DNA from: a virus
Taxonomy: Duplodnaviria; Caudoviricetes
Reading direction: 5' to 3' (one strand)
Virus record (IMG/VR): IMGVR_UViG_3300009529_000012
Location: 1 to 46,575 of that record
DNA: 46,575 nucleotides
A program made the translations under genes and the position numbers. This document shows, one piece after another, positions 22,701 through 46,575 of the stretch. The notes beneath the pieces were generated by a model. The model worked only from the letters and a program-made list of their open reading frames with translations, ran no database searches and was not told the DNA's origin. Each line of letters opens with the position of its first letter. Within the stretch, counting starts at the first letter, position 1.

Positions 22701-23031
22701 GACAGCCTCTAAGTTGTGGCAACAGAAGACTGCTGCTAAGATGGTTCATGTAGGTCCTTTCCCTCTGAGAGTAAGTGAATTTATGATTCCTCCTACATTT
22801 GCTCCTGTCTACTATGGCGCGAAGGTACTTGCTGATGGGATTGATGCAGCTAAGTACCAGGAGCCTGAAAGGTTTAAGAGGAGTGTGAAAGCACTGGCGA
22901 AGAGTGGACTTATGTTTACTCCAGGAGGGCTACAGATGGGACAATTTTACAGAGGAGCACAGAAGGAAGGATGGGAGGGTTTTGCAAAAGCTATCGTGAG
23001 GTATGATCCTGAGAGGGAGGAGGAATACTAG
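19786..23031 (+). CDS. large putative DNA-ejection / internal virion protein
   Basis: 1081 aa, helical; SAMRNYFQ and TQYLYG...FQSW pattern seen in large podovirus internal proteins. Confidence 0.6.
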   Translation: MTKGYEVEEKEGVAGYPSPEKKGVRGYDFKPPSGPLKPVPLRGWEYKFATGEFFGPRRDLTGGGFFEAIYDPVATRAVSANVYAGVRTVAEILPYARYIFPSGRDEWARKTTTGQTVELGIEALTILPIGLIGKGLQITARGVSKVGTFPFRMTKKFALQKKVGRLMEQDPFLDFASTTVKKYERLSAAERAMKKYEIDSEEATSLLRRRPWIWEKSEKSGALWQGEGSSNFKKLFKKDGYLQKDVAEQLGRWSRPHDVQELKHYTVEWIKLVKKTFGLKYDPANVFKMQAVKLFGEEIGKALKFGDVDTRTFGHLIRDLLEENPAKLMQRMDIGYGHRMFYHFLPARKVFGFGERVWQTFSKIHEPIGEMFTNANKYGTLMTSRFHALLASRGLGRLTAPREAGVVMLKKNFSKREWEQAGELVTSLDDAVGRGIEQTGLQGIMDQAPTTVQKIAKSWFDFTDDLYRDYMKKKIPQVFEEIGLTGRGRDGLALLMKGEKGIDNVVDVTLSQSANLAYADKAKILEAMLEKTRGSLKGNLDWFVDKPLNALTKAEKATLREKLVGGLEELLPMEKGSKKGFVNYLDKYATRIYSKQFAQSMERTRDLAKSRKAMFTKGRTREFAEEGRITDLTRIAEARINMQAKELYVYKPLEKVIDHARTLPEKFRNYSEHYIARQLGEASHADVALSQWLTGTVGVLTKRVYDERSVANLAHTINDLVYMGGLGFKPFSAMRNYFQPLLMVPADLGGLKDFYWLGKGYAAAFKKPTRDYIKSVGAIQEFAPDLYLRPRVLGFGGSFTVGGKKFDLPSTQTMRDLALWMFKNSDRHNRYVTGGAAIEKWDYFSKKFLSKSLGKKEMKLFSKKLNLGSREEWVRAQINEHLRKGTLGGLEEAKKVWVYDVIADTQYLYGTLGAPIYGQSAGSLGKMAGIFQSWWMNYGAALEKWALRTPGAVPIVNKRTMTWLLAGAIVEETASKLWQQKTAAKMVHVGPFPLRVSEFMIPPTFAPVYYGAKVLADGIDAAKYQEPERFKRSVKALAKSGLMFTPGGLQMGQFYRGAQKEGWEGFAKAIVRYDPEREEEY

Positions 23032-23110
23032 ATTGATTCAATAATTGAATCACTGGGCTAAAATGGATGGGTCAAAATGGACCAGTGATTCAATTATTGA
23101 ATCAATGTAG
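23028..23110. repeat. 83-bp inverted doublet of motif A (29-bp arms, 25-bp spacer)
   Basis: CTAGATTGATTCAATAATTGAATCACTGG ... CCAGTGATTCAATTATTGAATCAATGTAG, 1 mismatch. Confidence 0.95.
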
Positions 23111-28812: not shown

Positions 28813-29100
28813 CTACATTGATTCGTTTTTTGAATCAAAAGAGTTTTTACAGACAATCTCAGAAACAGGTATTCTTTCTAGTTCTTTCACAGAAGTTTGC
28901 GTAGGGCCTGAACTTACTAGTCGAAGATTATCTAAGAATGGAGCTGGCCATTCTTCTACAACATCCCAAAGGATAATTTTCTGTCCTTTAATAGTAGTTG
29001 TTTCTTCTTTATAACGAATTTTTACCAAATCAAAGTTATGTTCCCTACAGAATTCTCTTATGTTTTCTACGGGTTCTCCTTTCCACTCAAAAATTCTCAT
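28813..29100 (-). CDS. hypothetical protein
   Basis: ATGA overlap with pol; C-terminus encoded by a motif A copy. Confidence 0.55.
   Translation of the reverse strand: MRIFEWKGEPVENIREFCREHNFDLVKIRYKEETTTIKGQKIILWDVVEEWPAPFLDNLRLVSSGPTQTSVKELERIPVSEIVCKNSFDSKNESM
28817..28839. repeat. motif A palindrome copy
   Basis: ctac ATTGATTCGT TTT TTGAATCAAA. Confidence 0.8.
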
Positions 29101-31559
29101 AGCTTCACCTCCTTAAGGCTTCCCCAATCACTCCCAGTCTTAAAGTCACAAGGAATAACTAGCTCTCTATTGTTTATCTGAAGAGGAATTTCTAGAGCAC
29201 TCTTTACTTCAGCCATAGCACAGGGAATGTCAATAGGTAGACATTGTCCAACTACTTCATCGTGGACATTTAGAAGAGGTTCGAAGATACTAGAAGTTTC
29301 GTGAAGAGTCTCTATACCTACTTCCAAAATTTCTCCCACAGTAGATTGCGGTCTGAAAGCTAAGGCACTGCGAAAGAGGTTGTCACTGAGGCGACCACGA
29401 AATACTCTCTTCCTGAAGAAAGGAGCACAAGTGATAAGTGTCCTAGTAGCTCTGATTTCCTCTTTTGTTTTGTTCTGCCAAGACACAAGCATAGGGTTAT
29501 TTGTCTTGTATTGGTGAAGAAGTCTTTTACATAAGTCGAGTTTAAAGTAAATTTCTTCACGAATTAAAATTGTCTGGAGCATTATTGGTCCCATTCCATA
29601 GGAAGCAGCGTAGACAATAGCCTTAGTTATTCTTCTGTAGAATTCAAGGGTATATTCAACTCCAGTAAGATTGCTCTTGTAGAGAGCATCAGGAATGTAA
29701 TTTACATTCTCTGGGATTTGGAAGATCATTTTGCAGTCAAGCCAATGAGTATCTTCACCAGCGAGAAATGCTTCTATTAGCCTGGTGTCATTAGACTCCC
29801 AAGCAATTACCATTTTCTCGGCTGTCCTAAGGTCACCAGCAAGGAGTACTTTCTCCTCGTCAGGAATAAAGAGACTACTCACGAGGCGACCTTCCTCAGT
29901 CCTTACGGGAATGTTCTGGAGATTACCGCCTCCACCAAAAATACTTTCAGAGGACGAGAGACGATAAGTGGAAATAAAGGAGTAAGAAGTCCTGATGCGA
30001 TTATCTTTCTCTACCTTCATGCTAGCATAGGTAGAAGACAACTTTGCAAATTTTCTGTGGTCTACAATTGCTTTGAGAACCTTATTCTCAGGATGCTTTT
30101 TACGCAGTCTATTGAGAGCATCCTTGTCAGTAGTAGGCTTCTTTGTCTTGTGATTGTACTGCATAGGGAGGCCAAGGTAGCCATAGACTAGGCGGATCAT
30201 CTGGGGAGAAGAATTGAGATTCCAACTTTGGCCAGTAGATTCAGTAAGTAGCTTTTCAGCTTCAACAACCTTCTCTCCGAAAATCTTTTGCAACTCTCCC
30301 TTCTTCTCTACATTTATTTTAACTCCCCTAATTTGCATAGCAAGAAGAGAAGGAATAACACTCATAGTCCTCTTATATCCATTCCAAGTGCCAAGTTCCT
30401 TAGCATCCCTCTCTGTTTGAGGCCAAATTTCTCTTGTGACACAACAGTCTCGCCCGTTGTAGATGAATTCTGCTTCATCGCCTATACGACGACCATCCCA
30501 TACTTTACCATCGTCCTTATAGTAAGGCTCCCATGTATAAATACTTGTCAAAGTTTCAAGAGCTTTCTTTAAGTAAGGATAAGAAGCATGATAACACAGC
30601 ATAGAATCTTCGACGCTCCCAGAGGCACAGCGGAGACCATAGTAGCGTCCAAGCACACTTAGGTCAAAGAGGCAGTTGTGGAAGATTTTCTTCACCTTCG
30701 AGGAGAGAAATACCTCACTGATTTTTTGTAGTACTCTCGCTTCCTCTGGGAGACTCCAAAAGAACCTTCTGTTCCGGAGGAAAGGAATTACAAAGGCATA
30801 GTCTGGTTGAGGAGAGAACCCTATACACCAAAGAAGAGGACCTTCGTCAGAGAAGAGAGTCTCTATATCTACTGCTACAAGAGGTTGGGCAAGAAGAAGA
30901 TCAAGTTGATGAATTGCCCCTGCTGCAGTAGAGATTATTTTGAACTCCCTCTCTGGCCTCTTGAAGTCTTTAGTAGAAGATTGCTCTATGACTCTCTCAA
31001 GATCTCTGAGGAAAAGTGGGAGAGCATTCTGTTGTTGTCTCTTCTTCTCCCCAAGGAGTCTCTCTTCAGGTTCATTCATTAGTCTATTAACGTAGGAAGG
31101 ATGGAAGCAGGGGTAGACTTTGAAGCCTTCTACGAGTGTACAAGGAAGGACAGAGCCTCTCCATTTAGTGATGCGCTTCTTTCCCGTGAGGATTGTCATC
31201 GCAACTCCTCCAAGGGCCACAAGAACATTGATAGCTCCTTCTTTCTTTTTTTCCTCAAGCCAACTACGAAGGTAGTCTATATGTTCTTGTCCCTCCCAAG
31301 TTGGACGAGTGTTTTTCTTGTCTTGGAAGTAGTAGTTAATGATGTTTTTAGGAGGTCTTTGTCTAAAAATGTTTCCTATGAGAACTTCACTTCTTGCAAT
31401 ACCTACTGTTCTGAAACAGCGGTCTAGAAGTTGTCCCGCAGCCCCTACAAAGGGGCGTAGAGCAGAGTCCTCTTCGCCTCCTGGTGCTTCTCCTATAAAG
31501 CACATCTCTGCGCTTGGTGGACCTTCAAAAGGCACTATATTGGTTGTCAGTCTCTCCAT
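29097..31559 (-). CDS. polA: family A DNA polymerase with N-terminal family-4 uracil-DNA glycosylase-like domain and 3'-5' exonuclease
   Basis: GEAPG..E....PFVGAAG and HPSY (UDG4); DIET, HNCLFD, YNGRD (exo); NLQNIP, D...AE, RRITKAIVYAASYG, VHDE (pol A/B/C). Confidence 0.92.
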   Translation of the reverse strand: MERLTTNIVPFEGPPSAEMCFIGEAPGGEEDSALRPFVGAAGQLLDRCFRTVGIARSEVLIGNIFRQRPPKNIINYYFQDKKNTRPTWEGQEHIDYLRSWLEEKKKEGAINVLVALGGVAMTILTGKKRITKWRGSVLPCTLVEGFKVYPCFHPSYVNRLMNEPEERLLGEKKRQQQNALPLFLRDLERVIEQSSTKDFKRPEREFKIISTAAGAIHQLDLLLAQPLVAVDIETLFSDEGPLLWCIGFSPQPDYAFVIPFLRNRRFFWSLPEEARVLQKISEVFLSSKVKKIFHNCLFDLSVLGRYYGLRCASGSVEDSMLCYHASYPYLKKALETLTSIYTWEPYYKDDGKVWDGRRIGDEAEFIYNGRDCCVTREIWPQTERDAKELGTWNGYKRTMSVIPSLLAMQIRGVKINVEKKGELQKIFGEKVVEAEKLLTESTGQSWNLNSSPQMIRLVYGYLGLPMQYNHKTKKPTTDKDALNRLRKKHPENKVLKAIVDHRKFAKLSSTYASMKVEKDNRIRTSYSFISTYRLSSSESIFGGGGNLQNIPVRTEEGRLVSSLFIPDEEKVLLAGDLRTAEKMVIAWESNDTRLIEAFLAGEDTHWLDCKMIFQIPENVNYIPDALYKSNLTGVEYTLEFYRRITKAIVYAASYGMGPIMLQTILIREEIYFKLDLCKRLLHQYKTNNPMLVSWQNKTKEEIRATRTLITCAPFFRKRVFRGRLSDNLFRSALAFRPQSTVGEILEVGIETLHETSSIFEPLLNVHDEVVGQCLPIDIPCAMAEVKSALEIPLQINNRELVIPCDFKTGSDWGSLKEVKL

Positions 31560-33866: not shown

Positions 33867-34067
33867 TTACTTTTCTGTCTCCTTTCTCCAAGAGTTGAAC
33901 AAATTTCCCTTTGCTTCTATTACTTGATGCTCTTCTATATTTTTTATCCTTAGCTGAAGGTGATCTAAGAGAAGAACAAGTTCTTTATGTGTTGCATACA
34001 TAAACTTTCTGTGGTACTCAGAATTCTTCTCAAGCCTTTCAATTCGTTCTTCAGTCACTTTTCTCAT
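33867..34067 (-). CDS. hypothetical protein
   Basis: RBS AGGAG; flanked by 18-bp direct repeats. Confidence 0.5.
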   Translation of the reverse strand: MRKVTEERIERLEKNSEYHRKFMYATHKELVLLLDHLQLRIKNIEEHQVIEAKGNLFNSWRKETEK

Positions 34068-35602
34068 TTTCCTGTCTCCTTTCTCCAAGCAAGAATCTCT
34101 TCCTGCTCTTCTGGATGATTTTCCCAGTAAAACTTCCACTCAGTACTCCCGGGCTCGAGTTCTTTGTAACCTCCCTTTGTAGCATCCTCCAGCTTGTCAA
34201 GTGTCGGAGTCTCAAGGGGAACCTCAGGCTCTTTGCGTTGGACAATATTAGAGAAACCATCAACCACATTCACTATTGCCAGTCTTCTGAAGTCAGGATC
34301 TTTCTCTATCATCTCCCACTTCAATTTGAGAGAAGGTTCTAGAGCTTCAGCAGCTACTGCCATCATGCCACTCCCACACATAGGATCAAGGACTTTATCT
34401 CCTGGGAGGCAGCTTCTTTGAAGGAGTTCTAAGTAAATCACAGGATGCTTGGCACTTGGGTGATTCTTTTTCATAGAAGGGGTAGGACAAGGAGTAGTTA
34501 TGACATCTGGAGCTCCTTTGCGAACCAAATTTTTGCTTCCTTTTCTACCGAAAGCAATAGGCTCGTAGGAACGCCCTGGCCATACGTCAGGGTTCCTTGT
34601 AACATGAGCACCTTGTTTGTGCCAAATGAGGGGAATTTTATTTGTAGAAAAGCCTGCTTTTGAAAGCATCTCATATACAATTTCATGCCTAACAATACCA
34701 AAAAATAGGTAGAGATGGGAGTCCCTGGCCATTTTTTTGTATAGAAGAAACAACCAGCTCTCCAATTCGTTCCTAAATTGCTCAGGTGGTATTTCACTGT
34801 CCTCAAAATCATCAGTGTTACCTCCTTTCTTCCTCACAGAGTCAAGTCCAACATGCCAGGGAGGGTCAAAGAGGACTACATCAAAGTAGCCATCCTCAAA
34901 GTCCTGGAGCTTCTCTTCCATAGAGGCTTGATGAATCTTCTTAGAGAAGAAGACCATCTGGCTTTCTGGAGTTATCTCAATCTCTTCTTCTCCATCAGTG
35001 GTTTCCTCTTTAAATGCTGTCTCTAGTCTCTCAAAGCGATCGAGTTTCTCCTCTAGCCTCTTAACAATTTTCTTCGCCTCAGTTCTTGTCTTTGCGTCTC
35101 TTACTTCTTTACTACTTTTGGCAAACAGACTTAGTTTTATGGCTTCTGAAACCGAGCCAACACTCTCCTGGACAATTTCTGCTGTGTCCTTTATTGAGTG
35201 GCCGCCTCTTACTCCTACCTTTGCAACTCCATGCTGGCTTTGTTCAAGTTGATGGAGTTCTTCTACTGCATTATCTTCTTCAAGCCACGTGAGATTCTCT
35301 CTGCAGATGTTTTCCTCAAGTTCTATTTTCTTTATTTCATAAGTGTTGTCTTCTCCTACCTCATCAATGGTAAATTCATAGTCAATTCCAAGCATTTCAC
35401 AAGCCCTCAAACGTCTTTCTCCTGCGACAAGGACAATTTTGTCTCCCTCTCGGCGACAAATTCCTCCCTGTTTTTGTCCTCTCTTTTGAAAAGAAAGAGC
35501 TAGGTTTCGTAGTTTCTTTGTGTCAAAGAGCTTCCTAGTTCTATCTGTAGGTACAACAATTTCTTCTGTTGGTGCTCCATAAACCTCTTTAACTACTTTC
35601 AT
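34064..35602 (-). CDS. ParB-domain / beta-class amino DNA methyltransferase fusion
   Basis: LVAGERRLRA, ELEEN..R.NL, HTH; then FDPPW (motif IV), HP..K and VLDPMCGSG (motif I). Confidence 0.85.
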   Translation of the reverse strand: MKVVKEVYGAPTEEIVVPTDRTRKLFDTKKLRNLALSFQKRGQKQGGICRREGDKIVLVAGERRLRACEMLGIDYEFTIDEVGEDNTYEIKKIELEENICRENLTWLEEDNAVEELHQLEQSQHGVAKVGVRGGHSIKDTAEIVQESVGSVSEAIKLSLFAKSSKEVRDAKTRTEAKKIVKRLEEKLDRFERLETAFKEETTDGEEEIEITPESQMVFFSKKIHQASMEEKLQDFEDGYFDVVLFDPPWHVGLDSVRKKGGNTDDFEDSEIPPEQFRNELESWLFLLYKKMARDSHLYLFFGIVRHEIVYEMLSKAGFSTNKIPLIWHKQGAHVTRNPDVWPGRSYEPIAFGRKGSKNLVRKGAPDVITTPCPTPSMKKNHPSAKHPVIYLELLQRSCLPGDKVLDPMCGSGMMAVAAEALEPSLKLKWEMIEKDPDFRRLAIVNVVDGFSNIVQRKEPEVPLETPTLDKLEDATKGGYKELEPGSTEWKFYWENHPEEQEEILAWRKETGK

Positions 35603-37660: not shown

Positions 37661-37870
37661 CTATACTACTTCCCAGTCCTTAGAAAATAGCTCAATCATA
37701 GTTTCTTTCCAAGGCACCATACCAAATCTACTTTCTACGTACAAGTACGGAGCAGTCATTTTGCTGTTCTTGTCAGGAAATTGTGCCTTGATTCTTACTT
37801 CCGGCGACCACTGGAAAAGACGCATAGCCTTTCCCTTTTTGACTTGTTCAAAAGCTTCTCCAAAGTTCAT
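37661..37870 (-). CDS. DUF2829 / Tad2-like protein
   Basis: MNFGEA....KKG....R..W ... VPW......L.S.DWEVV family signature. Confidence 0.7.
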   Translation of the reverse strand: MNFGEAFEQVKKGKAMRLFQWSPEVRIKAQFPDKNSKMTAPYLYVESRFGMVPWKETMIELFSKDWEVV

Positions 37871-38242: not shown

Positions 38243-38422
38243 CTACTCCTTCACTCTATTATTCCAACACTCTTCTGCCTTAGGCCACGTAGAACACGGT
38301 GGCCCTTTAGCTCCACAATTAGAGCATCTTATTGCACTGTCGCTCCACTCATCGAACAGGTCTGTGGCGACAGTTTCGAGCTCTTCCTTCTCTCCGCAAA
38401 ATGGACAGGGTTCAAGTTCCAT
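38243..38422 (-). CDS. Lar-family restriction alleviation-like protein (59 aa, not in ORF track)
   Basis: MELEPCPFCG...IRCSNCGAKGP......AEECWNNR. Confidence 0.7.
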   Translation of the reverse strand: MELEPCPFCGEKEELETVATDLFDEWSDSAIRCSNCGAKGPPCSTWPKAEECWNNRVKE

Positions 38423-44417: not shown

Positions 44418-44500
44418 CTACATTGATTCAATTTTTGAATCACTGGGTCAATATGAACCATCCAAAATAGGCCAGTGATTCAAAAATTGAATCAATGTAG
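44418..44500. repeat. 83-bp inverted doublet of motif A (perfect 29-bp arms, 25-bp spacer)
   Basis: CTACATTGATTCAATTTTTGAATCACTGG ... CCAGTGATTCAAAAATTGAATCAATGTAG. Confidence 0.95.
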
Positions 44501-44507
44501 AAAGAGG

Positions 44508-44545
44508 AAGAGACAAACTCCTCTCGGCATAAGGAGCCTGTCTCT
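44508..44545 (-). terminator. hairpin terminating the first early operon
   Basis: minus strand AGAGACAGGCTCCT-loop-AGGAGTTTGTCTCT, 14 bp with two G-U pairs; T tract on the + side, so possibly bidirectional. Confidence 0.6.
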
Positions 44546-44620
44546 TTTTTGGGGTAGGAGTTTGGCAGGTCTTTAGTCTGCCAGTTACATGACTTCACCT
44601 CCTCTCTTTAGGGAGTGTTG

Positions 44621-44860
44621 TTATTCGTTGCCTGGAGTTCTCTCCCACCACTTATTTTTAGCGGGTGCTGTTTCATCGTTTTCTAAAATATTGTCCTGGG
44701 TGAAAATACATCCGCAGGGACACCAAGCAACAAAAGCTAAATCTGTGTCTTCAAAGCTTCCTGGTTGCATTGCTGCCACTTTCGGATAGCCACAGCTTGG
44801 ACATGTCTTACTGTTGGACATGACTATTCCATAGCCTAATGCGTCTTTGTGTAGTGTCAT
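44621..44860 (-). CDS. Zn-ribbon hypothetical protein
   Basis: CPSCG...CPCGC; RBS GAGGAG. Confidence 0.55.
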   Translation of the reverse strand: MTLHKDALGYGIVMSNSKTCPSCGYPKVAAMQPGSFEDTDLAFVAWCPCGCIFTQDNILENDETAPAKNKWWERTPGNE

Positions 44861-44924
44861 TTTGTCTCCTCTCTTTCTCAATTAAGTCTGTCTGCATGGA
44901 TTGCGTTAGTTGTTGTGGTTTATG

Positions 44925-45404
44925 TTATAAAAGTCCCTGTTTTTCGAGCTCTTCCATTTTAGCCAATTTCGCTTCCAATTCAGCTTGGGAGCCGCCACCA
45001 TACTTGTCAACCATTGTGTCAAGTTTCTTGGCTTTGGTCTTGACACCTTCCCCTGCGACACGTGCGCCGACTTTGTAATTGTCAGCCATCGCTTGCATGT
45101 TCGCATGGCCTTCAGGTTTCAGAGTCCCGTCTTCTGTGAAACCGACTTCTTTGTAGTCCGGGCGAGTTGTCAGCTGCCTGACTCCTGACTCGATAAGAGT
45201 CACAAGGTCGCAGTCGTAACGTTCTTGGCACTCGTCAGAAATGGACTTGAGTTCATCAATGATGCCAGTTGTCGGTAGGAGCCAGTAGACTTCGTATTTC
45301 GTGTCACTCCCCCGGTCAAAGCCGATGTTTGTGTGAAGATAAATTTTTCCATCGTCTGGCTTGTCTCCTGCAATGTGCTCAATTTCTCTTTTTTCTTCTG
45401 CCAT
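44925..45404 (-). CDS. early hypothetical protein enclosed by a 22-bp inverted repeat
   Basis: RBS AAGGAG; arms 45429-45450 and 44879-44900. Confidence 0.75.
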   Translation of the reverse strand: MAEEKREIEHIAGDKPDDGKIYLHTNIGFDRGSDTKYEVYWLLPTTGIIDELKSISDECQERYDCDLVTLIESGVRQLTTRPDYKEVGFTEDGTLKPEGHANMQAMADNYKVGARVAGEGVKTKAKKLDTMVDKYGGGSQAELEAKLAKMEELEKQGLL

Positions 45405-45496
45405 ATTAATACTCCTTTGTGGGTATTTTCCATGCAGGCAGACTTAATTGTCAAAAAGTCCCAAAGTATGACTTATTGTATGGCATCAGTAATGTT

Positions 45497-45733
45497 TTAG
45501 TTTATGGCGACTAATAGGTGGTTTTTGTTTGTGATCTTGTTTGTTTTTACGAGTATATCAATTAGTTTTTGGTATATGTCTATTGACAGACTTGGCCAGT
45601 AAGTCATAAGTGCTGCGTATAAATGACCTGAAGGAATACCTTGTTGACCTGCCTCTTTTACACAGTCACTAATGAGTTCAATAACAATTAATGCTTTGTT
45701 TTGTTTTATTGGCTTCATTTTTATTGGCTTCAT
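45497..45733 (-). CDS. early hypothetical protein (winged-helix-like) enclosed by a 28-bp inverted repeat
   Basis: GIPSGHLYAALM...Y..LI..L motif; arms 45752-45779 and 45462-45489. Confidence 0.65.
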   Translation of the reverse strand: MKPIKMKPIKQNKALIVIELISDCVKEAGQQGIPSGHLYAALMTYWPSLSIDIYQKLIDILVKTNKITNKNHLLVAIN

Positions 45734-45811
45734 ATTAAATGACCTTGCCTTCCGATGCCATATAATAAGCCATACTTTGTCAATTCGTTTCTGGTGAATT
45801 ATACCGTCATA

Positions 45812-45824
45812 TTGTCAAAGAACA
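45812..45824 (-). promoter_or_regulatory. boxA-like antitermination element
   Basis: TGTTCTTTGACAA. Confidence 0.6.
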
Positions 45825-45860
45825 TTTTGAATGTTAAAGAATGTTATCATGCTGTTGATT

Positions 45861-46097
45861 TTATTTGTCAAACTTGAATGAGTGAAAAACTTCTCTGGCC
45901 CAAAGGCCATCAGTCCTGATTGATGTCTGTAGTCTACATTGTAAGAAGTCGAGCTCCTCTTGCAATTTCTTTGCACAACTTAAACAGACTGGTTGCTGTG
46001 GATATCTGGATTTTTCATGGACTGTGCCAAATGGTATCCCACAGTATGTGTTGGTATTTGTCGGGTGTATAATGTGGACTTTATGTTGTCTGGACAT
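45861..46097 (-). CDS. early Zn-finger-like protein enclosed by a 27-bp inverted repeat
   Basis: VH...TYCG...VCLSC; arms 46117-46143 and 45826-45852. Confidence 0.65.
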   Translation of the reverse strand: MSRQHKVHIIHPTNTNTYCGIPFGTVHEKSRYPQQPVCLSCAKKLQEELDFLQCRLQTSIRTDGLWAREVFHSFKFDK

Positions 46098-46135
46098 GGT
46101 ATACCACCTTTCCCAGGCATGATAACATTATTTAA

Positions 46136-46148
46136 TTTTCAAAGAACA
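46136..46148 (-). promoter_or_regulatory. boxA-like antitermination element
   Basis: TGTTCTTTGAAAA after a C/A-only leader. Confidence 0.6.
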
Positions 46149-46183
46149 TGGTTTTTTGTTGTTTTGTTGTTGACCTGTATTGT

Positions 46184-46200
46184 TGCACAGGTTGTGCCAA
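46184..46200 (-). promoter_or_regulatory. sigma54 (-24/-12)-like promoter
   Basis: TTGGCACAACCTGTGCA: GG-N10-GC, one mismatch to TGGCAC-N5-TTGC. Confidence 0.55.
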
Positions 46201-46296
46201 ATGTCACGTTTTGGAGTAATTATTTTAAAACTCAATAAATTCAATGGGTTGTGCGAAGTTTGTTTTGTTGTTCTAACTTGTCACAATGGCGGGGAA

Positions 46297-46424: not shown

Positions 46425-46551
46425 TGTGTTGGTTCAATTATTGACGCAATGGAGAGTGTTTTGGGCGTCCATGCCCGTGCAAATGGGTATTTGTTTGATT
46501 GACAGGGGTCATTGGGTGCGTTTGAAATTTGTTGTTAGTTCTTTCTTTAGT

Positions 46552-46575
46552 AAAAAAAAAAAAAAAAAAAAAAAA
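46552..46575. repeat. terminal poly(A) homopolymer (24 nt)
   Basis: window ends in an A run. Confidence 0.9.

Follow-up and report, generated by a model that had tools for sequence, protein, structure and literature searches.

The inverted repeats that enclose early genes of this uncultured tailed phage are a real and conserved element, and they belong to the RNA level. Each pair of arms forms a long helix (stalk) around a single protein-coding gene, with a boxA word at its head. By analogy with rRNA operons, we suggest that the phage likely borrows the host rRNA machinery to fold, and probably cut out, single-gene mRNAs, because its relatives keep or lose boxA and pairing together.

Three stalks at the start of the early genes

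The window analysed here (46,575 nucleotides, positions 1 to 46,575 of IMG/VR record IMGVR_UViG_3300009529_000012) is a near-complete tailed phage genome. Family searches found a terminase, a P22-like portal and the major capsid protein, together with a family A polymerase, a primase, a Sak4-like protein and an exonuclease. The capsid protein shares just 24-27% identity with cultured phages, and an Rfam search of the window gave no RNA family match. The three-stalk region is the beginning of the minus-strand (early) arm and presents the following features:

46421-46406, 46391-46376 and 46312-46297, minus strand: three copies of GTACAAAATATTGTAC
46239-46251, no strand assigned: IHF-like site; relatives have a similar element ahead of their promoter
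46184-46199, minus strand: sigma54-like -24/-12 promoter TGGCACAACCTGTGCA, start predicted at about 46173
46149-46175, minus strand: 5' leader, unstructured and A/C-rich (24/27 nt are A or C)
46136-46148, minus strand: boxA1 TGTTCTTTGAAAA, overlapping 5' arm 1
46117-46143, minus strand: 5' arm of stalk 1, 24/27 pairs
45861-46097, minus strand: gene 1, 78 aa, Cys/His-rich
45826-45852, minus strand: 3' arm of stalk 1, partner of 46117-46143
45778-45829, minus strand: boxA2 leader module, with boxA2 TGTTCTTTGACAA at 45824-45812
45752-45779, minus strand: 5' arm of stalk 2, 25/28 pairs plus two G-U
45497-45733, minus strand: gene 2, 78 aa (73 if the second ATG is the start), predicted to be a small winged-helix-like protein; its SD is weak
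45462-45489, minus strand: 3' arm of stalk 2, partner of 45752-45779
45448-45460, minus strand: degenerate boxA3 GACTTTTTGACAA, overlapping 5' arm 3, in the register of the intact boxA of relatives
45429-45458, minus strand: 5' arm of stalk 3 (core 45429-45450)
44925-45404, minus strand: gene 3, 159 aa, a conserved phage protein, promoter-proximal, with its SD GGAG inside the loop
44871-44900, minus strand: 3' arm of stalk 3 (core 44879-44900)
44621-44860, minus strand: gene 4, 79 aa, rich in Cys, with none of the three stalks around it
44508-44546, minus strand: terminator-like hairpin, predicted end of the early unit
600, 1026, 5294, 11411, 13071, 23032-23106, 24231, 37055, 37913, 44422-44496 and 46317, across the whole window: copies of the palindrome ATTGATTCAA-N3-TTGAATCAAT

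We reproduced the coordinates and matches that the sequence-only reading had given for the three arm pairs: 24/27, 25/28 with two further G-U on the mRNA strand, and 21/22. As it had claimed, the pairs are mutually unrelated in sequence and boxA-like motifs lie by each of them, with the full word at 46148 and 45824 and a degenerate third one. All three stalks appear in both the MFE and the centroid structure, with pair probabilities of 0.69-1.0, mismatches aside. Stalk 3 reaches into its own boxA, pairing 45429-45458 with 44871-44900 (26/30 pairs).

The ungapped arm scores were 18, 20 and 19, and none of 40 block-wise dinucleotide shuffles of the window as a whole scored above 16. When the 87 SD-led ORFs of the window were ranked by the pairing of their flanks, the three genes came top (23.5, 21 and 19.5; median 8); the next scores, 18.5 and 17, belong to ORFs bracketed by the dispersed ATTGATTCAA palindrome. 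In the whole window, the pattern TG[CT]TCTTT[AG]A[AC]AA has just two occurrences, at 46148 and 45824 of the minus strand. Stalks 1 and 3 have 5' arms that start within boxA, boxA2 lies about 45 nt ahead of arm 2, and boxA2 and boxA3 each begin 1 nt past the preceding 3' arm. Head to tail, the order of a unit is boxA, 5' arm, SD, ORF, A/C-rich linker, 3' arm and next boxA.

The sequence-only reading had overlooked the sigma54-like promoter with its IHF-like site. We assigned the promoter on the sigma54 core consensus GG-N10-GC, and the site at 46239-46251 resembles the IHF consensus. By its sequence, the motif has the characters of a sigma54 promoter and is the predicted early promoter. Of 36 loci, 35 carry the pattern TGG[CT]A-N8-GC no more than 1.1 kb upstream of gene 3, and it is retained in phages without boxA or stalk. 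A weak sigma70-type reading overlaps it (46207-46179: TTGACA-like, 17 nt, AATAAT-like); either way the start falls near 46173, about 25 nt before boxA1. A sigma54 promoter would require a host enhancer-binding protein, and we infer that the three copies of GTACAAAATATTGTAC are candidate upstream activator sites. A literature search, judged by titles and the opening lines of abstracts, turned up nothing on sigma54 early promoters in such phages.

Gene 3 has 73 homologues (154 clusters at 50%) and a structure model with pLDDT 89. It matched no Pfam or PHROG family, and fold searches of pdb, pdb_via_wide (best Z 3.9) and viral gave no clear match; in the Atlas it met unnamed clusters alone, and this lack of a fold match does not make it a new fold. 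Gene 1 had no clear homologue and no loci in viral_contigs, with one weak pairwise likeness to an ORF in locus L021 (E 3e-4). For gene 2, a DsrD-like Atlas match at 0.88 is a lead only. Its homologues occur in five other phages (L001, L009, L011, L019 and L021), and the viral_contigs scan gave no loci.

None of the four gene-2 homologues scored is enclosed or boxA-led, and a repeat scan of L011 shows no enclosure. Thus, stalks on all three genes do not hold as a conserved feature: the gene-3 stalk alone is conserved, and those of genes 1 and 2 were seen solely here, where their pairing is argued from chance statistics and two G-U pairs, not from covariation. The boxA2 leader is identical at 47/52 nt to the leader ahead of the gene-3 homologue in L022, after which the arms differ. 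The turnover of genes within a boxA frame, which the sequence-only reading had proposed to look for, was therefore found, with the same boxA leader preceding different genes in different phages. Since one boxA frame serves different genes and the gene-2 homologues are unstalked, the triple array, with stalks on genes 1 and 2, appears to be a likely gain in this phage's lineage.

Several other elements were observed in the window. The SD region of gene 4 (about 44861-44878) can pair with the 3' side of the terminator-like hairpin (about 44505-44525, minus strand) at a score of 13.5, below threshold; this is a possible fourth enclosure, which would hide the SD and rival the terminator. The palindrome ATTGATTCAA-N3-TTGAATCAAT is dispersed, operator-like and intergenic, and two copies each make 29-bp near-perfect hairpins (23028-23110 and 44418-44500). 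Where early and late genes diverge, at the window ends (1-200 and 46480-46575), a poly(A/T) tract is flanked by an inverted repeat with TTGTTTGATTGA; it is kept in relatives (L001 3058-3289, L002, L012, L016 and L020) and is possibly an origin or genome end. On its minus strand, the window also encodes a Tad2-like anti-defence domain (37661-37870; E 1.5e-13), a Lar-like zinc finger (38243-38422), a fusion of family A polymerase and a uracil-DNA glycosylase domain (29097-31559) and a ParB-methyltransferase fusion (34064-35602).

Conservation and pairing of the gene-3 stalk

Scans with the alignment of the gene-3 homologues gave 51 loci, including the window itself (L008). After dropping four exact duplicates, six loci with incomplete ORFs and five near-duplicates, 36 non-redundant loci remained; gene-3 relatives were searched for in genome_contigs as well and none was found there. 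A stalk encloses gene 3 in 19 of the 36 loci, the window included, with 26-38 columns (bp) and scores of 17.5-28. The 17 unstalked loci have flank scores of 6.5-12. Non-cognate flank pairs (n=1260) scored 8.9 on average, and the 33 that reached at least 15 were almost all between stalked relatives with common arms or the boxA complement. Loop sizes are 260-650 nt, and an SD-like word lies within the loop, outside the helix, in stalked loci. In L002 and L017, a copy of the dispersed palindrome sits between the gene-3 5' arm and the SD. In L040 (882-1150), a second gene has its own 26-nt stalk directly after the first, without its own boxA.

The covariation that had been proposed as a check is present in the gene-3 stalk: the arm sequence is rewritten and the pairing kept. 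Beyond boxA, in the 15 loci in boxA register, an arm pairs with its own partner at 324/340 positions and with swapped partners at 1748/3616. Of 1168 comparisons in which the 5' letter is not the same in the two loci, 1077 keep the pair in both; local alignment, which trims unpaired ends, and the kinship of the loci inflate these counts.

boxA lies at most 200 nt upstream in 18 of the 19 stalked loci, the 19th carries the one-letter variant TGCTCATTGACAA, and none of the 17 unstalked loci has it. boxA and stalk thus occur together in 18 or 19 of 19 stalked loci vs. 0/17 unstalked ones. The Fisher p of 4e-9 overstates this link, because the loci are not phylogenetically independent. In the tree, one well-supported clade unites 13 of the 19 stalked loci, another holds most of the unstalked ones, and the remaining six stalked loci sit on long, uncertain branches elsewhere; this clustering implies few evolutionary events behind the link, not 36. 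The offset of boxA from the arm start is at most 3 nt in 10 of the 19 loci, 8-19 nt in five and 41-67 nt in four.

Inverted repeats could also act in DNA, as the ends of invertible segments, small transposons or cassettes. Imperfect inverted repeats of 21-30 bp around single genes resemble such ends, and the gene content at this locus turns over quickly. However, the arm pairs and lineages share no sequence besides boxA, and all stalked loci have the enclosed gene in a single orientation, pointing away from promoter and boxA. No recombinase family was found among the window ORFs by Pfam. The inversion that would have told against RNA stalks was searched for in contigs from two DNA runs, one of which belongs to another study, and no strand-changing joint was seen; contigs drop rare forms, so this check cannot exclude rare inverted ones. 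With unrelated arms, one orientation, no joints and no recombinase family, we rejected the element as an invertible segment or insertion sequence.

The mismatches themselves also go against pairing in DNA. Among the transition-type mismatches of the 19 stalks, read on the mRNA strand, G-U outnumber A-C by 33 to 15 (33/48, p 0.007), and by 32 to 11 with four close relatives removed (32/43, p 0.001). In 27 other inverted repeats used as a control, there were 37 G-U and 49 A-C (37/86). This G-U excess on the mRNA strand favours pairing in RNA. Duplex energy gave a weak result: it was better on the mRNA strand in 12 of the 19 stalks (p 0.049) and in one of the three in the window. Altogether, we consider it highly likely that the helices form on the mRNA, and an origin as DNA element ends extremely unlikely.

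We also scanned viral contigs for promoter plus boxA only, blind to the gene, and obtained 20 matches in 14 groups of near-identical loci. In four of the 14 groups (L229, L232, L234 and L246), a helix starts in or just after boxA and closes 3-17 nt past the first stop codon, ranking in the top two among 66-67 control windows. The other ten groups showed no such helix, and several of them resemble chance matches to the pattern; a stricter promoter-plus-boxA pattern gave zero matches. No likeness to gene 3 was seen in the ORFs of L232 and L234. That of L246 scored weakly on a wider gene-3 family profile (E 0.001-0.005 among seven sequences), as did the ORF of the unstalked L244, and that of L229 was borderline (E 0.01-0.02). 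These profile scores weaken the idea that all gene-blind matches are unrelated to gene 3; the L246 and perhaps the L229 ORFs may be its remote kin.

Likeness to rRNA operons and other systems

We compared the stalks with rRNA operons of the order Desulfobacterales, chosen because MAGs of this order carry the phage boxA word. The comparison is an analogy and does not point to a host. Sixty-one genomes gave 18 full-length 16S loci, 17 of which were parsed; in 16 of these 17 operons, the 5' arm of the 16S helix contains boxA. A second boxA stands ahead of 23S in 16 operons and reads TTTGACAA, like the phage word, in 10/16. Twelve of 14 23S regions have a helix, starting -7 to +6 nt from boxA in seven of the twelve. 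The same boxA 17-mer heads alphaproteobacterial 16S stalks (three operons, offsets of 8-23 nt). Moreover, TGTTCTTTGAAAA and TGTTCTTTGACAA are identical to words ahead of 23S in real operons; boxA3 is degenerate. The rrn-like geometry first proposed for the phage is borne out, as boxA placement and helix length match real rrn operons.

The phage units share with the rrn operon the boxA word on the transcribed strand, its position in or just before the 5' arm, a covarying helix longer than 17 bp (near 30 bp in both), and one boxA per enclosed unit with the units head to tail. They enclose no rRNA. Unlike in the rrn operon, the loop holds a protein-coding gene with an SD (gene 3 is conserved as a protein), the arm sequence turns over freely, the promoter is sigma54-like and the module is optional among relatives. 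Thus, the phage element works like an rrn leader-trailer unit, yet it is not one, because its loop is mRNA.

Further observations concern these genomes and the boxA words. The first boxA (46136-46148) ends GAAAA like the Desulfobacterales 16S-leader boxA, and the later ones (45812-45824 and 45448-45460) end GACAA like the commonest spacer boxA, an anecdotal likeness from one genome. GYTCTTTGAMAA is enriched in the Desulfobacterales MAGs G002 and G003 (25 and 27 copies vs. 3 of the reversed control in each), and several of the copies sit at contig ends. In a Desulfobacterales MAG locus (L081, 2478-3617), three copies of a repeat of about 80 nt each end in the boxA 17-mer; the spacers between them are single ORF-sized segments in the opposite orientation, and the whole resembles a cassette array. 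The 17-mer names no host, since a scan of genomes found it in many phyla among the matches listed. Comparing 19 kb of the window with 401 genomes of the phylum of G002 gave eight weak matches, and the two shortest and best-matching of them lie outside any repeat array.

In rRNA operons, boxA recruits NusB/NusE, and the leader is anchored by the complex, which has been proposed to carry it over to the trailer; RNase III cleaves the resulting leader-trailer helices (PMC10250234 and PMC8632103). Likewise, PMC13753749 describes B. subtilis NusB binding a GAUCUUUGAAA-type boxA. A NusB family protein and RNase III are each encoded in 5/5 Desulfobacterales-order genomes tested, which bears on the phage by analogy. 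The phage boxA is very probably functional.

The helices may also form on the mRNA with Nus help and stay uncut, clamping the ends of the gene unit against nucleases or organising the transcript. The pairing and boxA evidence fits this equally well. In E. coli, the rRNA helix matters independently of RNase III, and boxA spacing matters only in part (PMC10250234). The B. subtilis hbs mRNA offers a further likeness, a helix between 5'- and 3'-UTR that encloses the coding sequence; unlike the phage stalks, its pairing has 14 bp and modulates RNase Y cleavage, and boxA is unmentioned in the abstract (PMC5737220). However, the near-perfect phage helices of 26-38 bp have the length of rRNA processing stalks, about twice the hbs pairing, and RNase III is encoded in all five Desulfobacterales-order genomes of the comparison. 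We consider helices that stay uncut unlikely.

Other relevant precedents come from phages. RNase III likely splits the polycistronic early transcript here, as in T7 early mRNA, and protects the products. The enzyme is reportedly used on the early mRNA of SP82 too. With pairing restricted to 100 nt, the arms gave no long local helix and the fold was 87 kcal/mol less stable; T7-type local intergenic RNase III hairpins were ruled out on this ground. In lambda, the RNase III site of the N leader is a local hairpin whose cleavage relieves repression. The phage resembles lambda nut in having boxA in early mRNA ahead of a coding gene and a link to RNase III, and differs in that its helix is long-range and encloses the gene, and no conserved boxB was seen. 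boxA2 is followed by a small hairpin, seen in this window and L022 only. No lambda N-like family was found in the window by Pfam or PHROGs, though N proteins diverge. boxA in phage mRNA as such is not new, since the boxA-boxB nut sites of lambda, which serve N antitermination, and the regulation of its N leader by RNase III are known (PMC10250234, PMC5725501 and PMC8708148). Unlike the local 49-nt stem of T7 R1.1 (PMC8708148), two arms flank the whole phage gene and carry boxA. A search of the full-text literature, with subscription papers mostly outside its scope, found no description of boxA-headed helices enclosing phage genes.

In suhB and CKO_00699, boxA also lies a short way upstream of the SD, with repression and Rho termination as the outcome; the passages of PMC5725501 on them describe no enclosing helix. 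For suhB, that paper reports that boxA before the coding gene represses translation and promotes Rho termination, and PMC12360218 and PMC10931766 also describe a boxA-anchored loop that blocks translation and favours Rho termination. The phage module could be a brake or timer of this kind, in which the loop blocks translation as in suhB and lambda N, the closing and cutting of the stalk releases the block or sends the mRNA to decay, and gene 3 tracks host Nus/RNase III levels and growth state. boxA lies 24-120 nt upstream of the SD, the geometry of Nus-loop repression without occlusion (PMC5725501). Besides, stalkless relatives retain promoter and gene, which makes the module an optional control layer. 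However, repression needs no helix that closes past the stop codon, and the SD stays outside the helix. The release version overlaps with our preferred reading, leaving only the decay version as a true rival, and we regard the brake as improbable. The suhB precedent nevertheless makes a protected, well-translated mRNA one of several outcomes.

A proposed route for the early messages

Our preferred reading, by analogy with rRNA, is that boxA-held arms fold the early transcript into three gene-sized loops that RNase III separates; for this whole chain we judge the chances to be slightly better than even. Host RNA polymerase would likely start at the sigma54-type promoter about 25 nt ahead of boxA1, as the conserved motif suggests. 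NusB/NusE would then bind boxA and build an rrn-type complex that, following the E. coli model, would keep the 5' arm tethered at the RNA exit as the gene is looped out, and would shield the RNA from Rho. The 3' arm would emerge just past the stop codon and pair with the held arm, a step for which the covariation argues. Pairing would bury boxA in or next to the helix, likely releasing the complex, and the next boxA, 1 nt on, would reload it. RNase III would likely cut the 27-30-bp helix. Each resulting mRNA would hold one gene, with its ends paired and its ribosome-binding site free; it would probably be long-lived and enter translation only once transcription is complete. The conserved target of the module would be gene 3.

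This is the interpretation first offered from the sequence, boxA and rrn-type folding with RNase III release, now strengthened by covariation, the boxA-stalk linkage and the rrn geometry, and narrowed by the conservation of the stalk for gene 3 alone. Against the full chain stand the second stalk of L040 without its own boxA, the four of 19 loci with boxA 41-67 nt ahead of the arm, and the ten of 14 promoter-plus-boxA groups without a helix. Cleavage of the stalk by RNase III is reasonably probable by the same analogy, the determinants of its cleavage being poorly defined (PMC8708148). Cut ends could then be ligated into circular mRNAs, as the earlier interpretation had allowed; paired ends would keep the cut termini together, yet no RNA ligase family was found among the window ORFs by Pfam, and we consider circles very unlikely.

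More broadly, and tentatively, at somewhat less than even chances, boxA plus stalk may be a portable module that routes chosen phage mRNAs through the host rRNA production line: Nus uncoupling from translation and Rho, delivery of the 5' to the 3' arm, and release by RNase III of an end-sealed mRNA. It would make a key early gene both stable and a sensor of the ribosome-making state.

With its varied sequences and its boxA offsets from 0 to 67 nt, the natural series of arms offers a short, translatable substrate on which the debated 'delivery' model of rrn helix formation could be put to the test, and the sister phages with and without the module are a built-in control. The module also suggests a compact design for stable bacterial mRNAs. 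If the proposal is true, the machine for rRNA transcription, folding and processing, known from rRNA, lambda N and a small number of repressed mRNAs, would also be co-opted for protein-coding messages, and phages would have one more way to exploit host machinery.
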